Shown here: one piece after another, positions 37,232 through 51,378 of the stretch | Numbering within the stretch: position 1 is the first letter of the stretch | Layout of the letters: every line of letters begins with the position of its first letter | From: an uncultured Gammaproteobacteria bacterium | GTDB taxonomy: Bacteria > Pseudomonadota > Gammaproteobacteria > JACCXJ01 | Length of the DNA stretch: 64,000 nucleotides | Reading direction: 5' to 3' | Assembly: GCA_963764725.1 (NCBI GenBank) | Contig: CAVXTM010000005.1 | Coordinates: forward strand, 32,001-96,000 | The notes under the pieces: model-generated | What the model was told of the DNA's origin: nothing | The model's database searches: none | Seen by the model: only the letters and a program-made list of their open reading frames with translations | Translations under genes and position numbers: made by a program

Positions 37232-38302
37232 ATGACGCCCTACGCCGGACTCATAGACCGTTACCGCCAGCGCTTGCCGATCAGCGATGCTGCGCGCATC
37301 ATCAGCCTCTGCGAGGGGAACACGCCGCTCATCCGCCTACAGAATATTCCCGAGCTCATCGAGCGCGATGTCAAACTGTATGTCAAATACGAGGGGCTGA
37401 ATCCGACTGGTTCTTTCAAAGACCGGGGGATGACCGTGGCCGTCACCAAGGCGGTGGAGGAGGGCAGCCGCGCGGTGATCTGCGCCTCGACGGGGAACAC
37501 CTCCGCTTCCGCGGCGGCCTATGCCGCCCGTGCGGGGATCGCGGCGTTCGTGTTGATCCCCGAAGGTAAGATCGCGCTCGGAAAGCTCGCGCAGGCCATG
37601 ATGGCGGGTGCGGTCGTGTTGCAGATCCGGGGGAATTTCGATGCCGGGATGCACCTGGTCAAGGAGGTCGCAGCGCGGGCGCCCGTGACCATCGTCAATT
37701 CCATCAATCCCTACCGTTTGCAGGGACAGAAAACCGCGGCGTTCGAGATCATCGAAGCGCTCGGGCGGGCGCCGGATCTCCACTGCATACCGGTCGGTAA
37801 CGCCGGTAACATCACCGCCCACTGGATGGGCTACAAGGAATATGCCGGCGATGGCCTTGCGAAGACCTTACCGCGGATGTGCGGCTACCAAGCGAGCGGC
37901 GCCGCGCCGTTTTTACGCGGACATTTCGTCGATGGTCCGGAAACGGTGGCGACCGCTATCCGCATCGGACACCCGCAATCCTGGGATCAGGCTTGGCAAG
38001 CGAATAAGGAATCCGAGGGATGGTTTGATGAGTTGAGCGATGAGGAGATCCTAGCGGCCCAAAAGCTTCTCGCGGAGAGGGAGGGCATTTTCTGCGAACC
38101 CGCTTCGGCGGCCTCGGTCGGCGGAGCCTTGCGCGATCTCGCAAGCGCTAAGATCCCTCCCGGGAGCCTGGTCGTTTGCACGCTCACGGGCCACGGCCTC
38201 AAGGATCCCGACATCGCGATCCTGCAAAGCGGCGCCAGGCGCGTGAATGTCGATGCCACGCTGGCGGCGGTGGAGCGGGCGATTATGGACAATATGACTT
38301 AA
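37232..38302 (+). CDS. thrC: Threonine synthase
   Basis: [41 protein letters not shown]. Confidence 0.97.
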
Positions 38303-40506
38303 GGGAATCCTAAATTTAGCGTTCCCTTAAGCTTATGCAATTGTACCGGTGGCTGACATGTCATCTTCCAGCAGCGGTGGATGTGCGGCCGCCGGACGAA
38401 ATCCAGAGAAATCGTGTCCCGGGTGATGTCTTGGATGTCGATCCCGGGCGAGGAAAACCGCAGCTTGAAATGCTTGCTGTTGGTTGAGAAAAGCAGCACG
38501 CCGTCGGCGCTCAGAAGCTTGAGCGCATCCTTGATCAGCGCCTCGTGATCGCGTTGGACATCGAAGGTTCCGGCCATGCGCTTCGAGTTGGAGAAGGTCG
38601 GCGGGTCGAGGAAGATGAGGCCGTAACGTGCTTTGCGTTGCGCTGCCTCCTGTATCCATTCCAGGCAGTCTGCCTGAATAAACGCATGCGGGCCCATATC
38701 GATTCGATTCAAGTTGAAATTGCGCCGCGCCCACTCGAGGTAGGTGTGCGAAAGATCGACTGTCGTCGTGCTCGCGGCACCCCCCAAAGCCGCGTACACG
38801 CTGGCGGCGCCCGTATATGCGAACAGGTTCAAAAAATGCCGCCCGGCCGCCAGGGCCTTGACGAAGGCGCGCGTGGCGCGATGATCGAGAAACAGGCCGG
38901 TGTCGATATAATCGGTGAAATTCACCGCAAAGCGATAGGCACCCTCATTGACAGTCACGAAGCGTCCTTCCTCGGCGAACTTCGTATACTGCGCCCGGTC
39001 CTTTTGCCGTTGGCGTAGCTTGAAGAACACCCGGTTCTCCGGTACGCCGGTGAGATCGGGGATCACGGCGAGGGCGGCGTCACGCCGTGCCGCCGCCTTG
39101 AGCGCGTCCACGGTGGGCGGGGGCGCGTACTCCTGCACATAAACCCAAGACTCCTCGCCCCCATAGAAGTCGATCGCTAAGGCGTACTCGGGTAAGTCGG
39201 CGTCATAGAGCCGGTAACATTCGACACCCGATCGCCGTGCCCAGCGGGCCAGCGAGCGCATATTCTTGCGGAGACGATTCGCAAACATCTCGACGCTCTG
39301 CCCCGCCAAGCTTGCCGGGCGCGTATCCGGCAGCTCGATTGGGGGAGTGGCGGCGCGCGCGGAACAGTGAAACAACGTCAAGGAGCACTCGAGGCCGCCG
39401 TTGTACAGCAGGATGGATCTGCTTGCATCCATCCGTAGCCGATAGAGAAGCTTGGTGTTCTCCGTGAATACCGCCGCGTCCCAGCCCGAAAAATTGCGCC
39501 TGAGCGTGTCACCGATCTCGGCATAGAGCCGCGGCAGCTCGCTATCGCCTCCGACTCTGCGTCCGTACGGCGGGTTAACCACGATTAATCCAGGCGTTGG
39601 CGCATTGGGCGGGGCAACTTGCAGTTCTTGCCGTGTGAATTGAATGACGCCGGCTATGCCCGCGCGCTCGGCGTTCTTGCGCGCGGACGCTACCGCACGC
39701 GGGTCGCGGTCGTACCCGGTGATCGTCGGCATGTTCTTGATGCCTTCCTGTTTGCGAGCCTGAGCCTCGTTCTGCAGCCGCTCCCAAAGTGCCCGATCGT
39801 GGCCGCGCCAAGCGAGAAACCCGAAATACCCGCGGATGAGACCCGGTGCGATGTCCGCGGCGACGAGGGCCGCTTCGATCGGAAGGGTGCCCGAGCCACA
39901 CATCAAATCCATGAACGGTTGGCCCTCGGCCGCGCGCTGGGGCCAGTCCAAAAGCAAAAGGATCGCGGCGGCGAGGTTCTCTTTTAACGGCGCCAGCATG
40001 GCGTCGTCGCGGTAGCCCCGCCGGTGCAGGCCCTCGCCGGAGAGATCAATGCTTACCGTGGCCTCGTTTTTAAATAGGTAAACGTTAATGCGTAGATCGG
40101 GCCGGTCTAAAGCGACCGTCGGTCTTGATCCGAAAAGATCGCGGAATTGGTCGACGATCGCATCTTTGACCTTGAGCGCTCCGAAATGCGAGTGGGTGAG
40201 GAACGAGTCGGCGCTATTCATATCGACCGCAAACGTATTGTCAAGGCCAAAGTGTTCGTGCCAGGCGATCGCGCGCACGCCGTCGTACAGCGCTTCGGGA
40301 TCGGAGGCCGGAAAACGGCCGAGCTGTAATATGACCCGCGATGCGACGCGCGACCAAAGGCAAGCGCGGTAGCCGGTTTCAAGCGTGCCCGCGAAGGCCA
40401 CGCCCGCCGATTGAACGCGGATCTTGGTGGCGCCGAGCGCTGTCAGCTCCTGTGCCAGAAGAGCTTCCGTCCCTTTCGGTGTGCTCGCGAAAAAACGTAG
40501 GATCAA
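38299..40506 (-). CDS. rlmKL: Bifunctional 23S rRNA methyltransferase RlmKL
   Basis: THUMP domain, [42 protein letters not shown]. Confidence 0.97.
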
Positions 40507-40741: not shown

Positions 40742-42120
40742 GGCTCTTCGGGAGAATTTGTGGGTAGATATGGGGTGGTTGACTAGAGGTTCAGCATCCC
40801 GCTCGGAATCTTTGGTTAGATGGAAGTGTGAACTTTTCATCGACCAGAGGGAGGGGAACGGGATGCAACTCAAGACTATCCTCAATCGCGTCGAGAAATC
40901 AAGTCGTTCGTGTACGGGGAGGCACGTGGGTGGAGGAAGCAGCGCGCCCCCGGCTGGAAGTGGAACTCCATCCACGGGCCAACGGCCGGCCGATCTGCTC
41001 GGGCTGTGGCCGAAGGGGGCCCGGTTACGATCGGTTGCCGATGAGGCGTTTCGAGTTCGTGCCGCTGTGGGGCATGACGGTGTTTTTCGTGTATGCGCTG
41101 CGGCGTGTGGACTGCCCCCGTTGCGGCGTGAAGGTGGAGCGCCTGCCTTGGGCGATGGGCAAGCACCCACTGACCGAGGCCTATGCGTGGTTTCTGGCCG
41201 GTTGGGCGAAACGGCTCTTTTGGCGGGAGGTGGCCGAGGCCTTCCAGACGACTTGGGAGGCGGTGTTCGCTGCAGTAGAACACGCGGTCCTGTGGGGCCG
41301 GGTGCACGTAGATCTCTCGGGCATTGACAGCCTGGGCATCGATGAGTTGGCTTGGGGACGGGGGCATCGGTACCTGACCATGGTCTACCAGATCGACGCC
41401 CGGTGTAAGCGGCTGCTGTGGATGGGCGAGAAACGCACGGTCAAGACGCTGTTGCGTTCCTTCCGTTGGCTGGGCAAGGAACGTAGCGCTGGCCTGCGCT
41501 TCATTTGCTCGGACATGTGGAAACCCTACCTCAAGGTCATCGCCAAGAAGGCGGGGCAGGCCATCCACGTGCTGGATCGCTTCCATATCATGGCGAATCT
41601 GAGCAAGGCGATGGACGAGGTGCGTGCCCAGGAAGCCCGGGGGCTCAAGGCCGAAGGCTATGACCCAGTGCTGACCAACACGCGCTGGCTCTTGCTCAAA
41701 CGCCCCGAGAACCTCACCGAGAAGCAAGAGACTAGACTCGCCGATCTGCTGCGCTACAATCTGCGCTCCGTGCGGAGCTATCTGCTCAAGGAGGACTTTC
41801 AATTCTTCTGGTGCTATACCTCGCCGTATTGGGCGGGGCAATTTCTCGATCACTGGTGCACACGTACGATGCGCTCGAAGCTCGAGCCAATGAAGAAGAT
41901 CGCTCGAATGCTGCGGGGTCATCGCGCGCTGCTGCTCAACTGGTTCCGCGCCAAAGGGCAGATCTCCAGGGGCGTGGTCGAAGGATTCAACACCAAGGCA
42001 AAACTGACCACCAGAAAAGCCTACGGCTTTCGAACCTATCATGCACTGGAAGTGGCTTTGTATCATACCCTTGGCGCTCTACCCGAGCCGCAGTTCACCC
42101 ATAGATTCTGCTGAGGAGCC
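40742..42120 (+). mobile_element. ISL3 family insertion sequence
   Basis: Imperfect inverted repeats GGCTCTTCGGGAGAATTTGTGGGT / ACCCATAGATTCTGCTGAGGAGCC; 8-bp poly-A target duplication. Confidence 0.95.
40863..42114 (+). CDS. ISL3 transposase (5' frameshift near 40900)
   Basis: CxxC..CxxC zinc finger, GIDE, CSDMW, LDRFH, VEGFNTKAK..RKAYGFR. Confidence 0.93.
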
Positions 42121-42299: not shown

Positions 42300-42331
42300 G
42301 TAGGGCGGAAGCCCCGCAGGGGCGTTCCGCC
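42300..42331 (+). repeat. GTAG-family REP upstream of RAYT
   Basis: GTAG-GGCGGAA-GCCCC-GCA-GGGGC-G-TTCCGCC; same family as 49277 and 49550. Confidence 0.8.
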
Positions 42332-42360
42332 GTATGAATGAGAGGTAATAAGGTTGACTG

Positions 42361-42551
42361 ATGCCGGACTATCGCCGTTTTCGCGTCCCCGGAGGCGCAT
42401 TTTTTTCACCATCAACCTATTGGAGCGCCGAGCCGATTTGCTGGTGCGGCATATCGAGCTATTGCGGGAGGCGGTGAGGCGTACGCGGGCCGAGCGACCT
42501 TTTCATGTCGTGCCTGGGTCGTGGTGCGAACTCCCATCTACGGAACTGTAA
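42361..42551 (+). pseudogene. REP-associated tyrosine transposase (RAYT), N-terminal fragment
   Basis: MPDYRRFRVPGG..FFTINLLERRADLLVRHIELLREAV..RPF; frameshifted, truncated before HUH motif. Confidence 0.85.
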
Positions 42552-42712: not shown

Positions 42713-43139
42713 ATGATTTTCGTCGTATTGCTGATCGTGGTCAGGGGACGTAAATCGACTGAAATCGGCAGCCTACGCGGGAGCGCATTTGGAAAAGAGG
42801 AGATTCAGAAGGCGATAGCAGCCGGGAAGCTTCAGCACGTCTACTACGACGGAGAAGTGTTGAGCAGTCAGAGACATCGGGATCGCTTCGGTTTCCTGCT
42901 TGCGTACGGTCCCATCCGAACGGCACGATCTTCAAGCTCTTCGAGGGTTTACGACTTGCGCTCTAGCTTCGTGCATCACGGCCGAAATCCAGGCGATCTA
43001 GAGGTAATGAGCCGATTCCTCGCCATGGCATGATGTCGTGTGCAGCTGCTATGGCATCGTCGGGCTTTCAAGTCCAAGGACCACCTGCTCGCTACCTGAT
43101 TCGCTGAAGTATGCATGGATCAGAGGGATGCCGCCTAAT
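42713..43139 (+). pseudogene. Decayed cassette ORF with HEPN-like RxxxxH motif
   Basis: YDLRSSFVHHG; ends near the attC R'' box. Confidence 0.5.
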
Positions 43140-43285
43140 TGTAGATGGCACGTCGCTCGCGCCAGCTCCGCAGGGTTGTGTTACGCGCCCGTGAAGCGAT
43201 GAGATTAAAAATCATGCATCCAGTGGCTGGGCGCATAACTGTTTCTATCGATGGCTCGCGATGTGCCATCGGGGCGGAGTTGAGC
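43133..43285 (+). other. Putative long attC site
   Basis: GCCTAAT (R''-like), GATGGCAC/GTGCCATC inner boxes, GTTGAGC (R'). Confidence 0.55.
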
Positions 43286-43312
43286 CTCACTCGTGATGGG
43301 AGGCGCTCGCGC

Positions 43313-43431
43313 CGCCATCCCTTCGTTCGAACGGCACCGCTTCGCTGCGCTCGCGGCTGCAGCCCACGCGGCTTCGTGGCAAGCAAGCTTGCCACTCCAC
43401 CGCGGGGCTGCCGCTCAACTCGCGCTCCGTT
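43313..43431 (+). other. attC site with degenerate R'', interrupted in R' by the group II intron
   Basis: TTCGAACGGCA/TGCCGCTCAA L boxes with an extra C, long internal palindrome, GTT at 43429-43431. Confidence 0.75.
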
Positions 43432-44050
43432 ATCGCGCCAAGGAAGCTTGGCGTATCTTGCAGGGTGAAAGTCCCTGCCGGGTAAGGGCTAACCACCCAC
43501 CCGTATCGAGTGTTGCGCCTGTGGCGGAACGTTCGAGCAGTCAGAAGGTTGTGAGAGTCGTGAACAAGACAGGCGAAGCGTACACAGAGCATCTCGTAGG
43601 CCACAAGGGTGATCGCACACCCTGAAGTGCTGGTACAGCCTCGAAAGAGAGTTTGTGGCAGTCGGCGAGCGTGTTAACGGACGTGAAGCCCATGGGAAGC
43701 GACCGTTTTGTTTGGGTGAGGTCGCGGAAGGCTGTCGGGGTCCTCAGGCCGTGGCATGCGAGAAGAGATACGTTGAGAACTTGGGAGGCCCCGAGTGCTC
43801 CTGGGGTTTGGAAGTGGCGTGGTAAGGCATACAGCTATTGAGGCACGGCAGGGGAAACCCGGCAACGGGGTTAGGCTGGAGCCTAAGCGGCGCTGCGGAA
43901 GGGCTCATGCGGGTAGGGGAGCTGAAGCGAAAGCCGAAGCGAACGAAGGTCGCTCGGAGGCGTCGGATCACCTCATAGTACTCGGAAGCCGGGAGAGCCG
44001 GCTACAGGGGGAAGGGGGTGACAGTGATACGCAGCCTGCAAAGGCAACTT

Positions 44051-46611
44051 ATGCCGGACACAGTTGGACCGGAAGAACATAAGCGAACCTCCCTGCAGGG
44101 AATAGCGTACAAGGCGAAGACCGACAAGGCCCATCGTTTTGGCAACCTCTCAGGGGAGCTGAACGAGGACTTGTTGAAAGAGGCCTGGCGCCGGCTTAAC
44201 AAGCAGGCGGCAGGAGGTGTAGACCGGGTCACGGCCCGGGACTACGAGCAGGAGCTCGATGCTAACATTAAGGGGTTGGTTGAGCGTCTGAAGGCCAAGC
44301 GTTATCACGCGCGGCTCATCAGGCGTCACTATATACCGAAGAGCGATGGCAGGCAGAGGCCGTTGGGCATACCTGTTGTCGAAGATAAGCTGCTTCAGGC
44401 TGCAGCGGCCATGCTATTGCAGGCGATATATGAACAAGACTTCTTGCCGGTAAGCTTTGGGTACCGCCCTGGGGTGGGAGCCAAAGAGGCGGTCGGGGCC
44501 TTGACGTTCAACCTGCAGTACGGTTGTTTTGGCTATATCGTAGAGGCTGATGTCAAAGGCTTTTTCGATAATCTCGATCACGACTGGCTCATCGGATGTT
44601 GCGCCTGCGGATCGGGATGAAGCGTTTATTGGCTTGATTCGCAAATGGCTCAAGGCGGGGGTAATGGAACCGGAAGGCGAGGTGATTCACCCGGTCACCG
44701 GCAGTCCTCAAGGCGGCGTGGTCTCACCGGTCTTAGCGAATGTGTATTTGCATTATGTGCTGGACCGGTGGTTTGAGCACGTGTCAAACCTCGGTGTCGT
44801 GGCAAGGCGATGCTCTGCCGCTACGCCGATGATTGGGTCTGCGCGTTTCAGTACCAGAAGAAGCCGAAGCTTTCCACCGGGTGCTACCGAAGCGGCTCGC
44901 CAAGTTCAACTTGGAGGTCGAGAAGACGCGGCTCCTTCGCTTTAGTCGCTTTCACCCGGGCCTAAGACGACGCTTTGCGTTTCTGGGCTTTGAGTTCTAC
45001 TGGGACATCGATCGCCAGGGAGAGCGTCAACTGAAGAACCGCACGGACCGGAAGAAGCTCCGGGCCTCGCTGCGCTCCTTCACGGAGTGGGTGAAGCGGC
45101 ATCGCCATTATTCCCTCAAGCGGCTCTTCGGGGAGATCTGTAGCAAGTTGCGAGGTTACTTCAATTATTATGGCGTCGCCGGCAATTCCCGTTCGGTGAA
45201 AACGTTCTTCGATGAGACCATGCGGATCCTGTTCAAATGGCTGAATCGACGGAGCCGCAAGCACCGGATGAATGGGTGGCGCTTCTACCGGCTAGTACTT
45301 CGTCACATAAATATGCTTACACATCATGCCAACTCCAAGTCGAAGCGCTTCCACCGGAAGGCGACGGGCTGCTCGTTCATTTCGGCGATCCCCTTGAGGA
45401 TTCGTTGTTTCAGTTCGTCTCTGGACGAAACCCGAATATGCCGTAGAAAACTGCGCGCCATTTTGGAGAAAGCGCACTCGACTAAGTTGAGCCAGGAACC
45501 GTGTTTGGGCGTATGAACGTACTCGAAGCGACCGGGACGCGTGGCCAAGTAGGCCATGGTCTCTTGCGGATATGGGCGGAATGGTGTCGAACCCCATGCG
45601 GTCGTCGGCTCGGGGTAGTGGGCATCTAGGCGCCTCTCGGCGCGATGAACTCCCGGCTACGGTGACGAGGCTCGACGTCGTCGATGGTTTCACCGTTGTG
45701 CGGTCCAGAGCGACCGGATGGACGCGTGCCGTGACGCACGTACTCGTGGTCGCGCCCGATCGCGGAGTGCTGGCCCGGCACGGGCGGCAGATGGGAGCCG
45801 TCACCCCGAGGGCTTGCACGCCCGGCTTTTCGTCCACACTCACCGAATAGACCGGCGCAGCGGTCTTCGCGCTCACCGGCGTGGGCGCATGCGCGTGCAG
45901 GCTCAGCTCGCGATACACCATCAGCACCTCATGCATCTGCCGCTCAAAGTCCGCATCACGCCGTTCCAGGTAGTACCGAATCCGGTGCGGCTTGATGTCT
46001 CGCTCATTGAGAATGCGCCACACCGTGGTCTTGTTGGTGTCCCGCAGGCGCGGGAATCCCGACTCCAAGGCTCGGTTGCCCACGAACTTCGCCAGTTCGG
46101 ACAAGGTCCACAATTCCGCAGCCAAGCCATGATCCTTGGGCTTGGTGCAGGCCAAGCTTACCACCCAGGCCTTGGCCTCCGGCGTGATCTCAGCGTCCTT
46201 GGGCCGGTGAAACCGATCCTTAAGTCCGACCAGCACACCGGCCGCAACTGCCTTGTCTATGCATTTGTAAATCGTCGGTCGAGACACACCCACATCGCGT
46301 CGGATGTCTGTAATCGATGCCCCATCAGCGTATTTCAGCAACACCTTGGCGCGCTCGGCTTCACGAACTGGCGCCGTCCGAGAGCGAGCCAATTCCGCAA
46401 GCATCGACCGGTGCGTAGCGGTCAGCGTCAACGGCGCACGCTTGGTTTTTCCTGTCATGTCCGACTCCCGAGAGGACTCGGGAGGACATCATGACACCAG
46501 CAGACATATGCGTAAAGATATTACAGTAACGATGTACTAGTGGATCTCTTTCACGTGCCGGTGCCCCGCATCACAGAGCTTAATCGACGACCGAATCCCG
46601 TGTTAGCATGA
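44051..46611 (+). pseudogene. ltrA: Group II intron reverse transcriptase/maturase, frameshifted and IS630-disrupted
   Basis: [50 protein letters not shown] at 44822-44833, FLGF, LRGYFNYY; no endonuclease domain. Confidence 0.9.
45295..46537 (-). mobile_element. IS630 family element with frameshifted transposase
   Basis: Imperfect inverted repeats GTACTTCGTCAC / GTAACGATGTAC, TA duplication within CTAG; VDEKPGVQAL, TPKHGSWLNLVE. Confidence 0.92.
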
Positions 46612-46746
46612 TGAGGTCTTCGCTGACTGCGGAAGCGAGTATCACCGAGGAGCCCGGTGCGGTAGTTCCGCACGCCGGGATCTGTGCCGGGGCGGTCGGG
46701 TAACCGGCCGCTCTACGGCGGAGGCCGTAAGAACAGGAGCAAGAAT

Positions 46747-47646
46747 CTGAGAGTTCCATGGAACACAAATCGCTGTATCCTTTGCCTCCACGAAAACGAC
46801 TTGTGCGAGGAGCATCTGATTCCAGAGGCGCTCGGCGGAAAACTCACATGCGACTTTCTTTGCCGTACATGCAATTCGAAGCTAGGACACAACTTAGAGG
46901 CTAAAGCAAAGGCCGACCCGTCTGTCCTCATCGCCGCAAAACATCTCGCATCGCGGGTTCCAGAATTGGCAGCATCATTGCTGGAAAGCCACCCGCATAT
47001 CGGTCACAGCGAGCCGGGACCTGCCAAAGGATATATAAAGAACGGTGAGTTCATCGTCCGTTCGCAAAAGCTGGATGATGGGAGCCTTATCCAACCAACG
47101 GACCGTGCAAGAAACTCCATATCTAGGATATTGCAGAAATCTGGTTACGGAGAGGCGCCAATCAGTCTTGCAATGCAAGCATATGACGACGCTCCAGAGG
47201 ACACAAAATTAGAAATTGCTCCTGGTCTTGAGATCGTTAAGTGGCGTATTCAACGGTTGGAGTTGGATCTAAGCTGTGCTGTGCTGATGGACCCTCTTAT
47301 ACCTGCAAAAACGGCATACGAGTTCCTTGCTTGCCATATTGGTTCTGCCATCTATGACAGCGCCCCGCAACTGTCTGAAGTTCGAAATTGTTTAATAAGC
47401 GGCTTATTGAATACTGACCTGATACTGGTAGAGAGACTCTCTTCAAATAAGTACGAACCGTTTCATGGTATTTGCTTTGAAGGAAATGATCCCTACGCAA
47501 AGGTCGAAGTCAGGCTGTTTGGTTGGTTAGCATTCAGAGTTCATTTCCGTCGCCTATCGATTCAGGGACCAAGATTTATTTACACTCATCGGCTGGATAC
47601 CAAGGAAGAAGATGTTCGGGTTATTGATGAAGCAAAGACGGCCTAA
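46747..47646 (+). CDS. HNH endonuclease gene cassette
   Basis: CILC..EEHLIPEALGG..LC.TCNS.LG; AGGAG upstream of an in-frame CTG; visibly lower GC; stop within attC R''. Confidence 0.8.
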   Translation: MRVPWNTNRCILCLHENDLCEEHLIPEALGGKLTCDFLCRTCNSKLGHNLEAKAKADPSVLIAAKHLASRVPELAASLLESHPHIGHSEPGPAKGYIKNGEFIVRSQKLDDGSLIQPTDRARNSISRILQKSGYGEAPISLAMQAYDDAPEDTKLEIAPGLEIVKWRIQRLELDLSCAVLMDPLIPAKTAYEFLACHIGSAIYDSAPQLSEVRNCLISGLLNTDLILVERLSSNKYEPFHGICFEGNDPYAKVEVRLFGWLAFRVHFRRLSIQGPRFIYTHRLDTKEEDVRVIDEAKTA

Positions 47647-47727
47647 CAACGCCATCAACACGGACCGCGAAAAGCGGCGCTCCTTCGTCGCCCCGCTTTT
47701 CGCGGCCGGTTATGGCGAGCGTTATGC
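47641..47727 (+). other. Canonical attC site
   Basis: GCCTAAC-AACGC-CATCAAC ... CCGCGAAAAGCGG/CCGCTTTTCGCGG ... GTTATGG-CGAGC-GTTATGC. Confidence 0.92.
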
Positions 47728-47734
47728 CTAACCG

Positions 47735-48412
47735 ATGCTCAAGGTAATCCCGGAATACAGAGGACGGTCTGCCGACGTTATCGTCTCGGAAAACATTTGC
47801 AATGAATCATCCGGGTATATATATCGTGCGCTGTCATGGCTGGACTTGGCCAAGAGGAAAAGGAGTAGTCCCGCATTTCAGTACGCAGCGCACGATACAA
47901 GACAAGGTATTGAGCAGCTTCTATTCGAGGAGCTTGTCCTAAGTACAGGAGCAGCTTTGTCGCGAGACGAGTACCAGAAGTGCCTCGGCAACAGCACGAA
48001 GCTGCACGCCATTATCAAGCGGCTTTCCCCGGAGCGTGAGAAGCTCGCGCGCTTCACCCAAGCAATTATGTCAGTTGCGAGCGCTCCAATTGACCTTGTG
48101 ATTTGGGACCACGGGCTGCTTATGAAGCACTGGGGAACGGTTTCAGACTATCTCCATTGGTCAGGGGCCATCGATGAGACGATTGACTCCTGGCCTTGGG
48201 TGGAGGAAGGCATCAGCAAGACCGAACAAGCCTGCTCGTACATTTGGAGAAACCAGACCGAGCGGGACACGGCGGTGAGCTCGAAGGACATGCATCCCGA
48301 GATGCCTCGCTTTGGGAGCGCTTCCAGACAGGGAGCATTGGTGTTGAGGAGGTCAAATCTGGTCGAGGATTCTGGAGCCAATACTCGAATGCGACCCCGG
48401 GATAACCAGTAA
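47735..48412 (+). CDS. Hypothetical cassette protein, 3' end probably frameshifted or truncated
   Basis: Starts 8 nt after attC R'; no downstream attC seen. Confidence 0.6.
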   Translation: MLKVIPEYRGRSADVIVSENICNESSGYIYRALSWLDLAKRKRSSPAFQYAAHDTRQGIEQLLFEELVLSTGAALSRDEYQKCLGNSTKLHAIIKRLSPEREKLARFTQAIMSVASAPIDLVIWDHGLLMKHWGTVSDYLHWSGAIDETIDSWPWVEEGISKTEQACSYIWRNQTERDTAVSSKDMHPEMPRFGSASRQGALVLRRSNLVEDSGANTRMRPRDNQ

Positions 48413-48646: not shown

Positions 48647-49274
48647 ATGAGAAGAGTAACGGCGAGTGAAGCGACACGCAAACGGATCGCAGAGATGCTA
48701 AGGAGGTTGAAGGGATCGATGAAGTGAGCTGGTAGCCAGGCGGCCCGATTGGTCAGTGAGGAGGCGCTGGAGGCGCAGGTCGCGGGTGGGCGGGGTTACG
48801 AATAGTGCTCTCCGCTGGTCAGCGTAACGGCTATCGTTGCGGGAAGCTGGCAGGTGCAGAAGGTCGGATTGAATCCGCAATCGCGAGGTGCGTGGTTTGC
48901 CGGGCTGGCAATCGGAGTGAGAGCCGCGCTCTGTGGCAAGACCGAGGAGCTGGAGCGCTTAGCCATCGAGATGTACGCCCGGGGATTATCGATGCGCGAT
49001 GTTGAGGCGGCTTTTACGGACAACCAGGGGCGCTTGTGCCCAGCCGCAGTGCGGCGAGCCGCGTGGCCGAGCAGCTGTGGGTCAACTACCAGGCCTTTGC
49101 GACCCGTAGCCTCGCTGAGATTCCGATGGTGTACCTGTTTGTAGACGGCGTGGCCGAGCGGCTCCATCTTGGGCAGCCGCGAGAAGCGATCCTAGCCGCC
49201 TGGGGCATGGCCGAGGATGGGACCAAGCATCTGCTGGGGCTATTTCCCGGCACCAAAGAAGATACCGCCTCAGG
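48647..49274 (+). pseudogene. IS256 family transposase fragment
   Basis: RNGYR, EMYARGLSMRDVE, YLFVDGV.ERL; multiple frameshifts; cut off by REPIN. Confidence 0.85.
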
Positions 49275-49360
49275 CCGTAGGGCGGATGCCCGTCAGGGCG
49301 ATCCGCCGCATGGCAAATCTTTCGGCGGAACCACCTTCGGCGTTCCGCCCTACGAGATCT
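49275..49360. repeat. REPIN copy 1 (two inverted GTAG REPs)
   Basis: GTAGGGCGGATGCCCGTCAGGGCGATCCGCC...GGCGGAACCACCTTCGGCGTTCCGCCCTAC. Confidence 0.88.
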
Positions 49361-49364
49361 CCGG

Positions 49365-49541
49365 TTAGGGCGTCTGCCGGGAGCCTAAGAGTTCCAGGAT
49401 CTCTCCCGGCGAGCGTAGCATCACCGGTGCACCCTTGAAGTCCTTCGCGTTCCGCGTCACCGGGTAGTCGACCCCGACCTGAAGGCCGGCGGCGGCCTGG
49501 ACACCGTCTTCGTAATCCCGAAGACCGAGGCCAAGAGGTCC
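49365..49541 (-). pseudogene. C-terminal fragment of a PIN-domain (VapC-like) protein
   Basis: Hand translation: LRDYEDGVQAAAGLQVGVDYPVTRNAKDFKGAPVMLRSPGEILELL. Confidence 0.75.
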
Positions 49542-49547
49542 GTAGGT

Positions 49548-49634
49548 CCGTAGGGCGGATGCCCGTCAGGGCGATCCGCCGCATGGCAAAATCTTTCGGC
49601 GGAACCATCTTCGGCGTTCCGCCCTACGAGATCT
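49548..49634. repeat. REPIN copy 2, direct repeat of 49275-49360
   Basis: Near-identical (one extra A, one substitution). Confidence 0.88.
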
Positions 49635-49647
49635 GCAGACGGTTGGG

Positions 49648-51162: not shown

Positions 51163-51378
51163 ATGCGAAACGAATTTACTGCGATAATTGAGCGAGACGG
51201 CGAGTGGTTTATCGCCTATTGCCCCGAGATCCCTGGCGCTAACGGTCAGGGCCGAACGAAGGAAGAGGCCCGAGGGAGTTTGACCGAAGCAATCGCCCTT
51301 ATTCTTGAAGATCGCCGAGAGGATTGCTTACGCGGGGTACCGCCGGAGGCTGAGCGAGAAACCGTCATGTTATCGTGA
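51163..51378 (+). CDS. hicB: HicB family antitoxin
   Basis: FTAIIERDGEWFIAYCPEIPGANGQG.T.EEA. Confidence 0.88.
   Translation: MRNEFTAIIERDGEWFIAYCPEIPGANGQGRTKEEARGSLTEAIALILEDRREDCLRGVPPEAERETVMLS

Follow-up and report, generated by a model that had tools for sequence, protein, structure and literature searches.

The gene cassettes of integrons end in attC sites, imperfect palindromes bounded by an R'' box (RYYYAAC) and an R' box (GTTRRRY); what follows the G|TT crossover is already part of the next cassette downstream and corresponds to that cassette's own R''. Among the introns known from such sites are the IIC-attC introns, which are class C RNAs inserted in the bottom strand, against the direction of cassette transcription (PMC3001079). 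In a 2015 review, insertion at attC is listed for class C, and homing is what all the other classes are said to do as a rule (PMC4424553); attC targeting has so far been regarded as a peculiarity of one antisense class C sublineage. Two 5'-truncated class-E (IIB) fragments, H.ha.F1 and H.ha.F2, have been reported from an attC cluster lacking an integrase (CALIN) in Halorhodospira halochloris, together with the speculation that attC hairpins guide targeting (Sonbol & Siam 2021, PMC7923331); for class E/F ribozymes, exon-binding site 1 (EBS1) was found essential and EBS2 dispensable for splicing (PMC3753933). Here we analyse 64,000 nt of an uncultured gammaproteobacterium (JACCXJ01; assembly GCA_963764725.1, contig CAVXTM010000005.1, positions 32,001 to 96,000), which we call the window and number from its first letter. 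We hold with high confidence that 43433-46722 is a dead, endonuclease-less IIB-like (class E/F type) group II intron in the R' core of an attC, and that its choice of target is shared across its lineage. A first-pass annotation, made from the sequence letters, had named only IIC introns as known at attC sites, which overlooks the H. halochloris fragments.

The intron consists of the following parts.

43433-46722, + strand: IIB-like group II intron of class E/F type, whose 3290 nt include an insertion sequence (IS) of 1243 nt; Rfam, nhmmer and junction alignment
43468-43750, + strand: domain I core, Rfam RF02005 (group-II-D1D4-6), full model 1-225, 92 bits, E 1e-25, gathering score 49
46649-46683, + strand: domain V, with AGC triad and 5-nt loop UAGUU; RNA fold
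46685-46720, + strand: domain VI, with a candidate branch A at 46715; RNA fold

Domains V and VI fold together at -47.1 kcal/mol (46636-46722), and their features, the triad and the A bulged out 7-8 nt from the 3' end, are conserved in an alignment of 40 relatives. About 585 nt of ribozyme precede 44018, where the open reading frame (ORF) starts. Relatives free of an IS are 1.88-2.10 kb long, and the 3290 nt of the window copy are due to the inserted IS. In nhmmer searches with the 5' and 3' intron segments of the window, homology to 80 related loci ended at the borders given by the first-pass annotation. Most relatives read ...CGTTA|GUGCGCC at the 5' junction and ...CCUACCGCGAY| at the 3' end; in the window and the subgroup nearest to it the 5' junction is ...CGTTA|UCGCGCC. 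The junction alignment therefore makes A43432 the last base of the 5' exon and places the intron at 43433 (UCGCG) to 46722 (...GGCGGA). Its removal restores ...CTCCGTTA|GGCCGT, including the attC R' core GTTAGGC. The first-pass annotation had placed a sense-strand insertion inside this core, and the common + orientation of the intron, the downstream HNH gene and the R''-to-R' order bears this out. It had drawn the cut as GTT|AGGC; the ligated sequence is identical and the difference lies within the 1 nt that it allowed, and the alignment of relatives moves the cut to GTTA|GGC. The non-canonical ends that it had noted are likewise real, since the consensus GUGYG...AY is not matched, although they read UCGCG and GA rather than AUCGCG and GG. 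Because UCGCG is common to 11 of 85 unique related junctions (GUGCG being found at 54), it is a trait of a subclade and not a sign of decay.

Four short segments, one of them a candidate, take part in pairing with the exon or within domain I.

43426-43432, + strand: intron-binding site 1 (IBS1), UCCGUUA
43675-43681, + strand: EBS1, UAACGGA, pairing with IBS1 over 7 bp
43647-43653, + strand: candidate EBS2, GAGAGUU, of which GAGUU could pair with exon AACUC at 43417-43421
43713-43718, + strand: alpha', terminal loop of the hairpin after EBS1; its partner is the first domain I hairpin loop (~43490-43499)

The segment at 43675-43681 is a terminal hairpin loop in the Rfam alignment, and in a MAFFT alignment of 48 intron 5' ends it covaries with the last 5-7 exon bases across 47 relatives, as in these six.

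L023: exon end ATGTTA, loop TAACAT
L040: exon end CCGTTG, loop CAACGG
L048: exon end AGTACG, loop CGTACT
L054: exon end AATGCG, loop CGCATT
L073: exon end TTGTTG, loop CAACAA
L075: exon end TTTATT, loop AATAAA

This covariation confirms that the loop is EBS1, as had been proposed from the window sequence, and fixes the splice site. The target is thus chosen by the pairing of EBS1 with its IBS1, NCGUUA, at the 3' end of the attC in the top strand, and the cut in ...CTCCGTTA|GGCCGT falls 3 nt downstream of the G|TT crossover of the R' core. The second loop (~43647-43653) probably pairs with the attC right arm; the loop positions aligned to it in relatives pair with exon positions -8 to -17 over 9 bp in L061 and L083, 7 bp in L054 and 6 bp in L059/L060.

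Relatives of the intron were collected as 80 loci from species-representative genomes, with reverse transcriptases 44-60% identical to the query protein P0004, and as 80 metagenome loci (42-62% identity), which lie on short contigs, are no closer than the genome loci and entered the junction tallies only. The 72,556 plasmids of PLSDB held no close relative (tblastn with P0004; best match 43% identical). Relatives from many phyla retain UAACG as their EBS1 and are found at CGTTA| in hairpins that resemble attC, in several cases within a few kilobases of an integron integrase gene (intI). The 5' exons of the 85 junctions with unique flanks end in CGTTA| (39), other GTTA| (5), GTTN| (4), GTT| (2) or something else (35), and where GTTA precedes the intron the 3' exon most often begins with GGC (7) or GCT (4), giving R' cores like GTTAGGC.

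For 44 GTT junctions with at least 125 nt of upstream sequence we sought an AAC 45-170 nt upstream and scored the pairing of the 22 nt inside each anchor, with 1065 GTT sites from the same loci as controls. Half of the junctions (22/44) fell in the best 5% of controls (binomial p 1.7e-17) and 10/44 in the best 1%. The test is conservative, because the controls include other attCs, and it misses AT-rich sites that are attC-like by eye, such as that of L056. A test of whole-hairpin energy, with AAC anchored to GTT, did not discriminate, its controls being noisy and GC-dependent, and the arm-duplex test was used in its stead; unconstrained folds of the upstream flanks served for inspection by eye only.

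In 6 of 25 genomes an intI (TIGR02249, above the curated cut-off) lies on the intron's contig, 3.5-45 kb away, divergent from the intron in five genomes and co-directional in the sixth (L061). The distances are as follows.

L016: 3.5 kb
L015: 4.8 kb
L061: 5 kb
L027: 7 kb
L019 (two intron copies): 10.5 kb
L021: 30 kb, with L020 of the same genome at 45 kb

A maximum-likelihood tree of 77 reverse transcriptases, quickly made, has GTTA-type junctions to either side of its deepest split and non-GTT junctions mostly in small nested groups; the junction labels need 21 changes, and the window protein falls in a clade of 24 rows (SH-aLRT 95), 17 of them GTTA. An ancestral GTTA target is suggested rather than shown, because the tree is midpoint-rooted only. 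Taken together, the GTTA junctions, the attC-type arm pairing and the nearby intI genes support the view that the lineage homes, in the sense orientation, to attC R' sites, as a mirror image of the antisense IIC-attC introns. The first-pass annotation had inferred an independent attC-homing lineage and suggested that the flanks of homologues be tabulated; the tabulation agrees with it in the 44/85 junctions ending GTTA|, the enriched arm pairing and the intI genes of 6/25 genomes, and departs from it at the 35/85 junctions without GTT.

Some loci carry more than one copy. At L046:690-806 a related intron starts right after the 3' end of another copy, in a head-to-tail tandem, and L061, L019, L056 and L096 each have two copies a few kilobases apart; both copies of L061 are in attCs of one family, and those of L096 are at CGTTA| and CTACTA|.

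The strongest competitor to lineage-wide attC homing is an intron that recognises a motif of ~6-12 nt (NCGTTA plus a variable EBS2) and strikes attC merely as the commonest conserved instance of it (GTTRRRY), hairpin and integron being irrelevant. The covariation demonstrates recognition by EBS1 base pairing, which such an intron would also show; many relatives have been retargeted to unrelated sequences, at several GTTA sites, for example L068 and L016, the preceding structure is a simple hairpin and not a clear attC, and arm pairing is not outstanding at 22 of the 44 GTT junctions. A 5-nt motif, however, occurs thousands of times per genome, and half of the testable sites nevertheless have AAC...GTT arm pairing. 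Moreover, an intI within 45 kb in 6 of 25 genomes exceeds a rough chance expectation of fewer than one genome, and in L061, L059/L060 and the window the EBS2 candidates fit the attC arm found there. We therefore consider specificity for the motif alone unlikely, and homing to attC the better account of the lineage.

The attC that the intron interrupts, and the cassette downstream, are laid out as follows.

43268-43432, + strand: 5' part of the interrupted attC
43268-43285: left arm ATCGGGGCGGAGTTGAGC, degenerate; by-eye alignment to family members
43410-43431: right arm GCCGCTCAACTCGCGCTCCGTT; exact recurrence elsewhere in the genome
43429-43432: GTTA, the start of R', within IBS1 (43426-43432)
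46723-46725, + strand: GGC, the rest of the split R' core GTTA|GGC, opening both the 3' exon and the HNH cassette
46759-47646, + strand: HNH_5 endonuclease gene of the downstream cassette, 295 aa (Pfam PF14279, E 6e-11)
47641-47727, + strand: attC of the HNH cassette, intact; R'' is GCCTAAC (47641-47647), R' is GTTATGC (47721-47727)

By cassette logic the HNH cassette begins with TTA at 43430-43432, across the intron from its gene, whose stop codon falls within R''. The ligated GTTAGGCCGT is, over 10/10 nt, the exact reverse complement of ACGGCCTAAC at 47638-47647, a match that the first-pass annotation had already pointed out and that is the signature of a gene cassette. The cassette (46723-47735) has 49% G+C against 59% for the genome. 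Its attC forms an imperfect hairpin on both strands and is of a type with 73-86% identical copies in the attC arrays of the same genome (C2:144648-144704, C7:107959-108050) and in the related genomes G031, G036 and G038 (73-86% identity); further matches, in genomes flagged as unpublished, are left out of account. None of 40 related genomes yielded the HNH gene itself.

When the interrupted site is ligated and folded, its two arms are still paired. By-eye alignment to the family shows that its left arm has lost one base and changed AAC to ATC, so that R'' reads ATC and not the AAC of the other members of the family. Exact copies of the 22 nt in front of the intron (43410-43431) occur at eight other sites in the genome, each with a different RRRY after GTT, and most of these are matched 65-165 nt upstream by the complementary arm AACGGAGCGCGAGTTG. 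On contigs C7 and C13, copies of the right-arm family lie ~6 kb from an intI, in the divergent orientation of cassette arrays.

C7, 99992-100918, - strand: intI
C7, 106983-107073 and 107959-108050, + strand: attCs
C13, 52921-53691, + strand: intI
C13, 42257-47572, - strand: attCs

The window, and with it the whole 165-kb contig C5 to which it belongs, has no match to the integron integrase model (TIGR02249), the intI genes of the genome being on C15, C7 and C13. With two attCs (43268-43432/46723-46725 and 47641-47727) and no integrase, the locus is a CALIN.

The palindrome might instead belong to some other repeat family, REP-like or a transposon end, with its cassette features a coincidence. 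Its near-perfect 16-bp stem is unusually long, stands directly at AAC/GTT and has no obvious extrahelical bases, contig C5 has no integrase, and the window left arm is without AAC, all of which would suit such a repeat. We nevertheless regard it as very improbable, since copies lie 6 kb from intI on C7 and C13 with the divergent orientation expected of arrays, the 4 nt after GTT differ between copies as they do at cassette junctions, the HNH cassette carries the 10-nt R'/R'' signature, a second attC type shares the same arrays, and related introns of other phyla occupy independent attC-like sites near intI. The interrupted site is best read as an attC, of a family that recurs in the arrays of this genome.

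Immediately upstream of the interrupted attC stand the box GCCTAAT (43133-43139) and an inverted repeat of 13 bp, GATGGCACGTCGC (43144-43156) and GCGATGTGCCATC (43258-43270), which overlaps the attC left arm; GTTGAGC at 43279-43285 is a perfect core-site match. The boxes and the inverted repeat at 43133-43270 may be a remnant of another attC.

The class of the intron is indicated by its RNA. A 5-nt domain V loop, in place of a tetraloop, and an alpha' at the stem-loop tip in domain Id3 are hallmarks of classes IIE and IIF (PMC3753933). The window lineage has both: the domain V loop is 5 nt long in 40 of 40 aligned sequences, and alpha' lies in a terminal loop that covaries with its partner loop in relatives (GCCA/UGGC, ACCA/UGGU, GCUA/UAGC in L056, ACUC/GAGU in L063). 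In phmmer comparisons with solved enzymes, P0004 scored 130 bits against IIB, 129 and 119 against IIC and 120 against the IIA enzyme LtrA; because these scores are alike, P0004 is not a close relative of class C. By its RNA the intron is IIB-like, not IIC. The first-pass annotation had called it class-E-like and separate from the IIC-attC lineage; the second point stands on the D1D4-6 RNA, the E/F hallmarks and a reverse transcriptase no closer to IIC, and the first stands insofar as both IIE/IIF hallmarks are present, which do not separate E from F. That the intron is an ordinary class C IIC-attC intron of the kind known from integrons, as its place in an attC beside the conserved GTT triplet and its reverse transcriptase without an endonuclease domain might suggest, can practically be dismissed in view of the D1D4-6 match (the separate D1D4-3 element of C13 lying antisense to its array), the ~585 nt of ribozyme before the ORF start, the AGC triad, 5-nt domain V loop and terminal-loop alpha', the phmmer scores for IIC, no higher than those for IIB or IIA, and the + strand that intron, HNH gene and R''-to-R' order share, a sense, top-strand position opposite to that of IIC-attC introns (PMC3001079).

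Several observations weigh against our reading of a class E/F-type lineage that homes to attC. Its relatives are the best 80 matches per collection and not a random sample; 35 of the 85 junctions are non-GTT, and 22 of the 44 GTT junctions are unremarkable in the arm-pairing test. The contig of the intron carries no above-cut-off intI in 19 of 25 genomes, many of them fragmented metagenome bins and several with non-GTT junctions. The attC-like calls rest on our own criteria rather than on an attC covariance model (IntegronFinder), and the crude statistic for the candidate EBS2 is weak, with runs of at least 5 bp in 29 of 47 targets and 43 of 94 controls. The window attC itself ranks only in the best 15% of the arm-pairing test, its left arm lacks AAC with an ambiguous structure upstream of 43268, and a search of 40 related genomes did not find the uninterrupted site, matching only the second attC family. 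Finally, the label 'class E' is based on RNA hallmarks common to F and does not separate the intron from F or from unclassified relatives.

The window copy has decayed, as its protein-coding part shows.

44024-45294, + strand: reverse transcriptase/maturase pseudogene in three frames, YADD kept
44024-44590, 44616-44783, 44783-44860 and 44857-45297: pieces of the pseudogene, ungapped tblastn against P0001, 67-81% identity per piece
45295-46537, - strand: IS630-like IS, 1243 bp, with ~28-bp imperfect inverted repeats
45292-46458, - strand: ORF of the IS transposase with helix-turn-helix (HTH) domains; Pfam
46540-46611, + strand: displaced tail of the reverse transcriptase, its final 23 codons plus stop (VDLFHVPVPRITELNRRPNPVLA), recognised by the C-terminal consensus PxPRI of homologues

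The pieces match Pfam RVT_1 and GIIM, lie between domain I and domains V/VI, and are broken by at least three frameshifts. The IS interrupts the reverse transcriptase 23 codons before its stop; it duplicated a TA inside CTAG (45293-45294, 46538-46539), and by the TA/CTAG target rule we take it to be of the IS630 family. It is single-copy in the genome (BLAST, self match only) and its own transposase is frameshifted, with the HTH domains in the long frame only and the DDE-type C-terminus in other frames. To judge from these lesions the window copy is a dead, non-functional relic, and the order of events was insertion, then at least three frameshifts in the reverse transcriptase, then arrival of the IS630-like element, itself broken. 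The genome has no other reverse transcriptase of more than 41% identity. Homologues number 2083 of 351-2000 aa, the best being 72-79% identical, 440-456 aa long and with RVT_1 and GIIM only; the nearest intact homologues, mostly 440-456 aa, are without an endonuclease (D/En) domain.

Group II enzymes without an endonuclease domain usually take their primers at the replication fork. Since the enzyme of this lineage lacks that domain, established group II biology would have an active copy reverse-splice into DNA and be copied into complementary DNA from nascent strands at the fork. The GC skew of contig C5, weakly positive near the locus, is too weak to assign the replication strand. Active copies could splice from cassette transcripts and restore the RNA, because they lie in the sense orientation; this course is closed to the known IIC-attC introns (PMC3001079). 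In DNA the intron splits GTTA from GGC, so that only 4 of 7 R-box pairs are left, which should weaken the R box and might thereby affect recombination by IntI; physically, the intron would form part of the downstream cassette. We also put forward, tentatively and as something that may well prove wrong, that this widespread class-E-type lineage is a specialised integron passenger, which reverse-splices into the folded or single-stranded attC top strand at forks, 3 nt inside the downstream cassette, is moved by IntI with that cassette, stays silent through splicing and adapts its EBS2 to the attC family of its host. If so, sense-strand introns could weld neighbouring cassettes or help to make new gene-attC units.

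The surroundings of the intron, between rlmL and ~49650, are a patchwork of mobile DNA in which an ISL3 transposase, the intron, the HNH_5 gene, a further ORF and a fragment of a Mutator-type transposase follow one another.

38299-40506: rlmL
40828-42114: ISL3-family transposase, apparently intact, 428 aa (DDE_Tnp_ISL3, E 1e-70)
47735-48412: ORF of unknown kind

The ISL3 transposase (40828-42114) is flanked by A-rich DNA and adjoins rlmL. A by-eye guess that 42354-42551 is a fragment of a REP-associated transposase was dropped, there being no Pfam match. A palindromic repeat (GTAGGGCGGA...TCCGCCCTAC) seen by eye only at 49272-49370, 49540-49640 and ~42300-42345 of the window looks REP-like rather than attC-like, and a small ORF at 51163-51378 resembles UPF0150/HicB-like antitoxins weakly, below the threshold (E 0.002 and 0.014).

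Two other types of group II intron RNA occur in the genome. One (RF02001, D1D4-3, 130 bits; L186:3102-3269, + strand, equal to G000:C13:43101-43268) lies within the cassette array beside the intI of C13, on the other strand from the attC right arms there, where an antisense element of the IIC-attC type would be expected; P0004 has no match there. The other (RF02003, D1D4-4, 103 bits; L184:3400-3539, - strand, equal to G000:C1:189399-189538) lies near a reverse transcriptase ~35% identical to P0004 (C1:188236-189045). The attC arrays are also adjoined by a multi-copy tyrosine recombinase, with ORFs of 288-344 aa that score ~100 bits to the integron-integrase model, below the cut-off; its copies in this genome (G000) are these.

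C7:104036-104833
C10:132129-132926
C10:138177-138974
C9:8485-9282
C15:170351-171124

Comparable multi-copy, sub-threshold recombinases are present in G001, G006 and G015, one directly beside an intI and another ~3 kb from a related intron (L060).

Our searches of full texts for an attC-homing lineage outside class IIC found only PMC7923331, and a term search of Toro & Martinez-Abarca 2013 (PMC3552965) gave neither attC nor integrons. The association has thus been glimpsed before, and the mapped site, the EBS1 logic and the lineage-wide spread are new, although the attC folds of H.ha.F1/F2 (PMC7923331 supplement) may bear on the novelty of the target site. Those fragments resemble the window intron in being class-E-type, on the cassette strand, in an integrase-less attC cluster and decayed (PMC7923331). 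Being 5'-truncated, they came with no insertion site, EBS1 or lineage-wide pattern in the account of them in PMC7923331; the window intron, unlike them, has both ends, a cut at GTTA|GGC and a pattern over 85 junctions. UHB.I2, likewise non-IIC, lies directly downstream of an attC in cassette orientation but has a CL1 (IIB1) reverse transcriptase and no conserved flanking exons, and one class IIC intron noted in the same paper shares the top-strand, sense insertion while differing in class (PMC7923331). Cl.be.I2, Pe.th.I2 and Ge.ur.I1, of class E/F, have the small IIB-like RNA, the alpha' at the tip of the Id3 stem-loop and the 5-nt domain V loop, a likeness that we draw from their description and not from sequence, and their description mentions no attC target (Nagy et al. 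2013, PMC3753933).

That another lineage, unrelated in structure, has an EBS1 aimed at the sense-strand R' core suggests convergent colonisation of attC. One can now test if hairpins in DNA steer IIB-type introns to their targets, if IntI is stopped by an intron lying 3 nt from the crossover and if cassettes ferry introns between hosts, and the short conserved target could interest builders of targetrons. The IIC-attC introns, such as S.ma.I2 of Serratia marcescens, share the endonuclease-less reverse transcriptase and the homing to attC beside a conserved triplet, but are class C RNAs of the bottom strand (PMC3001079) where the window intron is IIB-like and in the top strand. S.ma.I2 comes between a gene and the attC belonging to it, and provides a promoter that points outward (PMC8876359); the window intron instead occupies the R' core, at the attC's downstream end, and is in principle spliceable from cassette transcripts. 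As a sense intron can be removed at the RNA level, the cassettes downstream of it need not be silenced, and the two attC lineages would then affect cassette expression in opposite ways.

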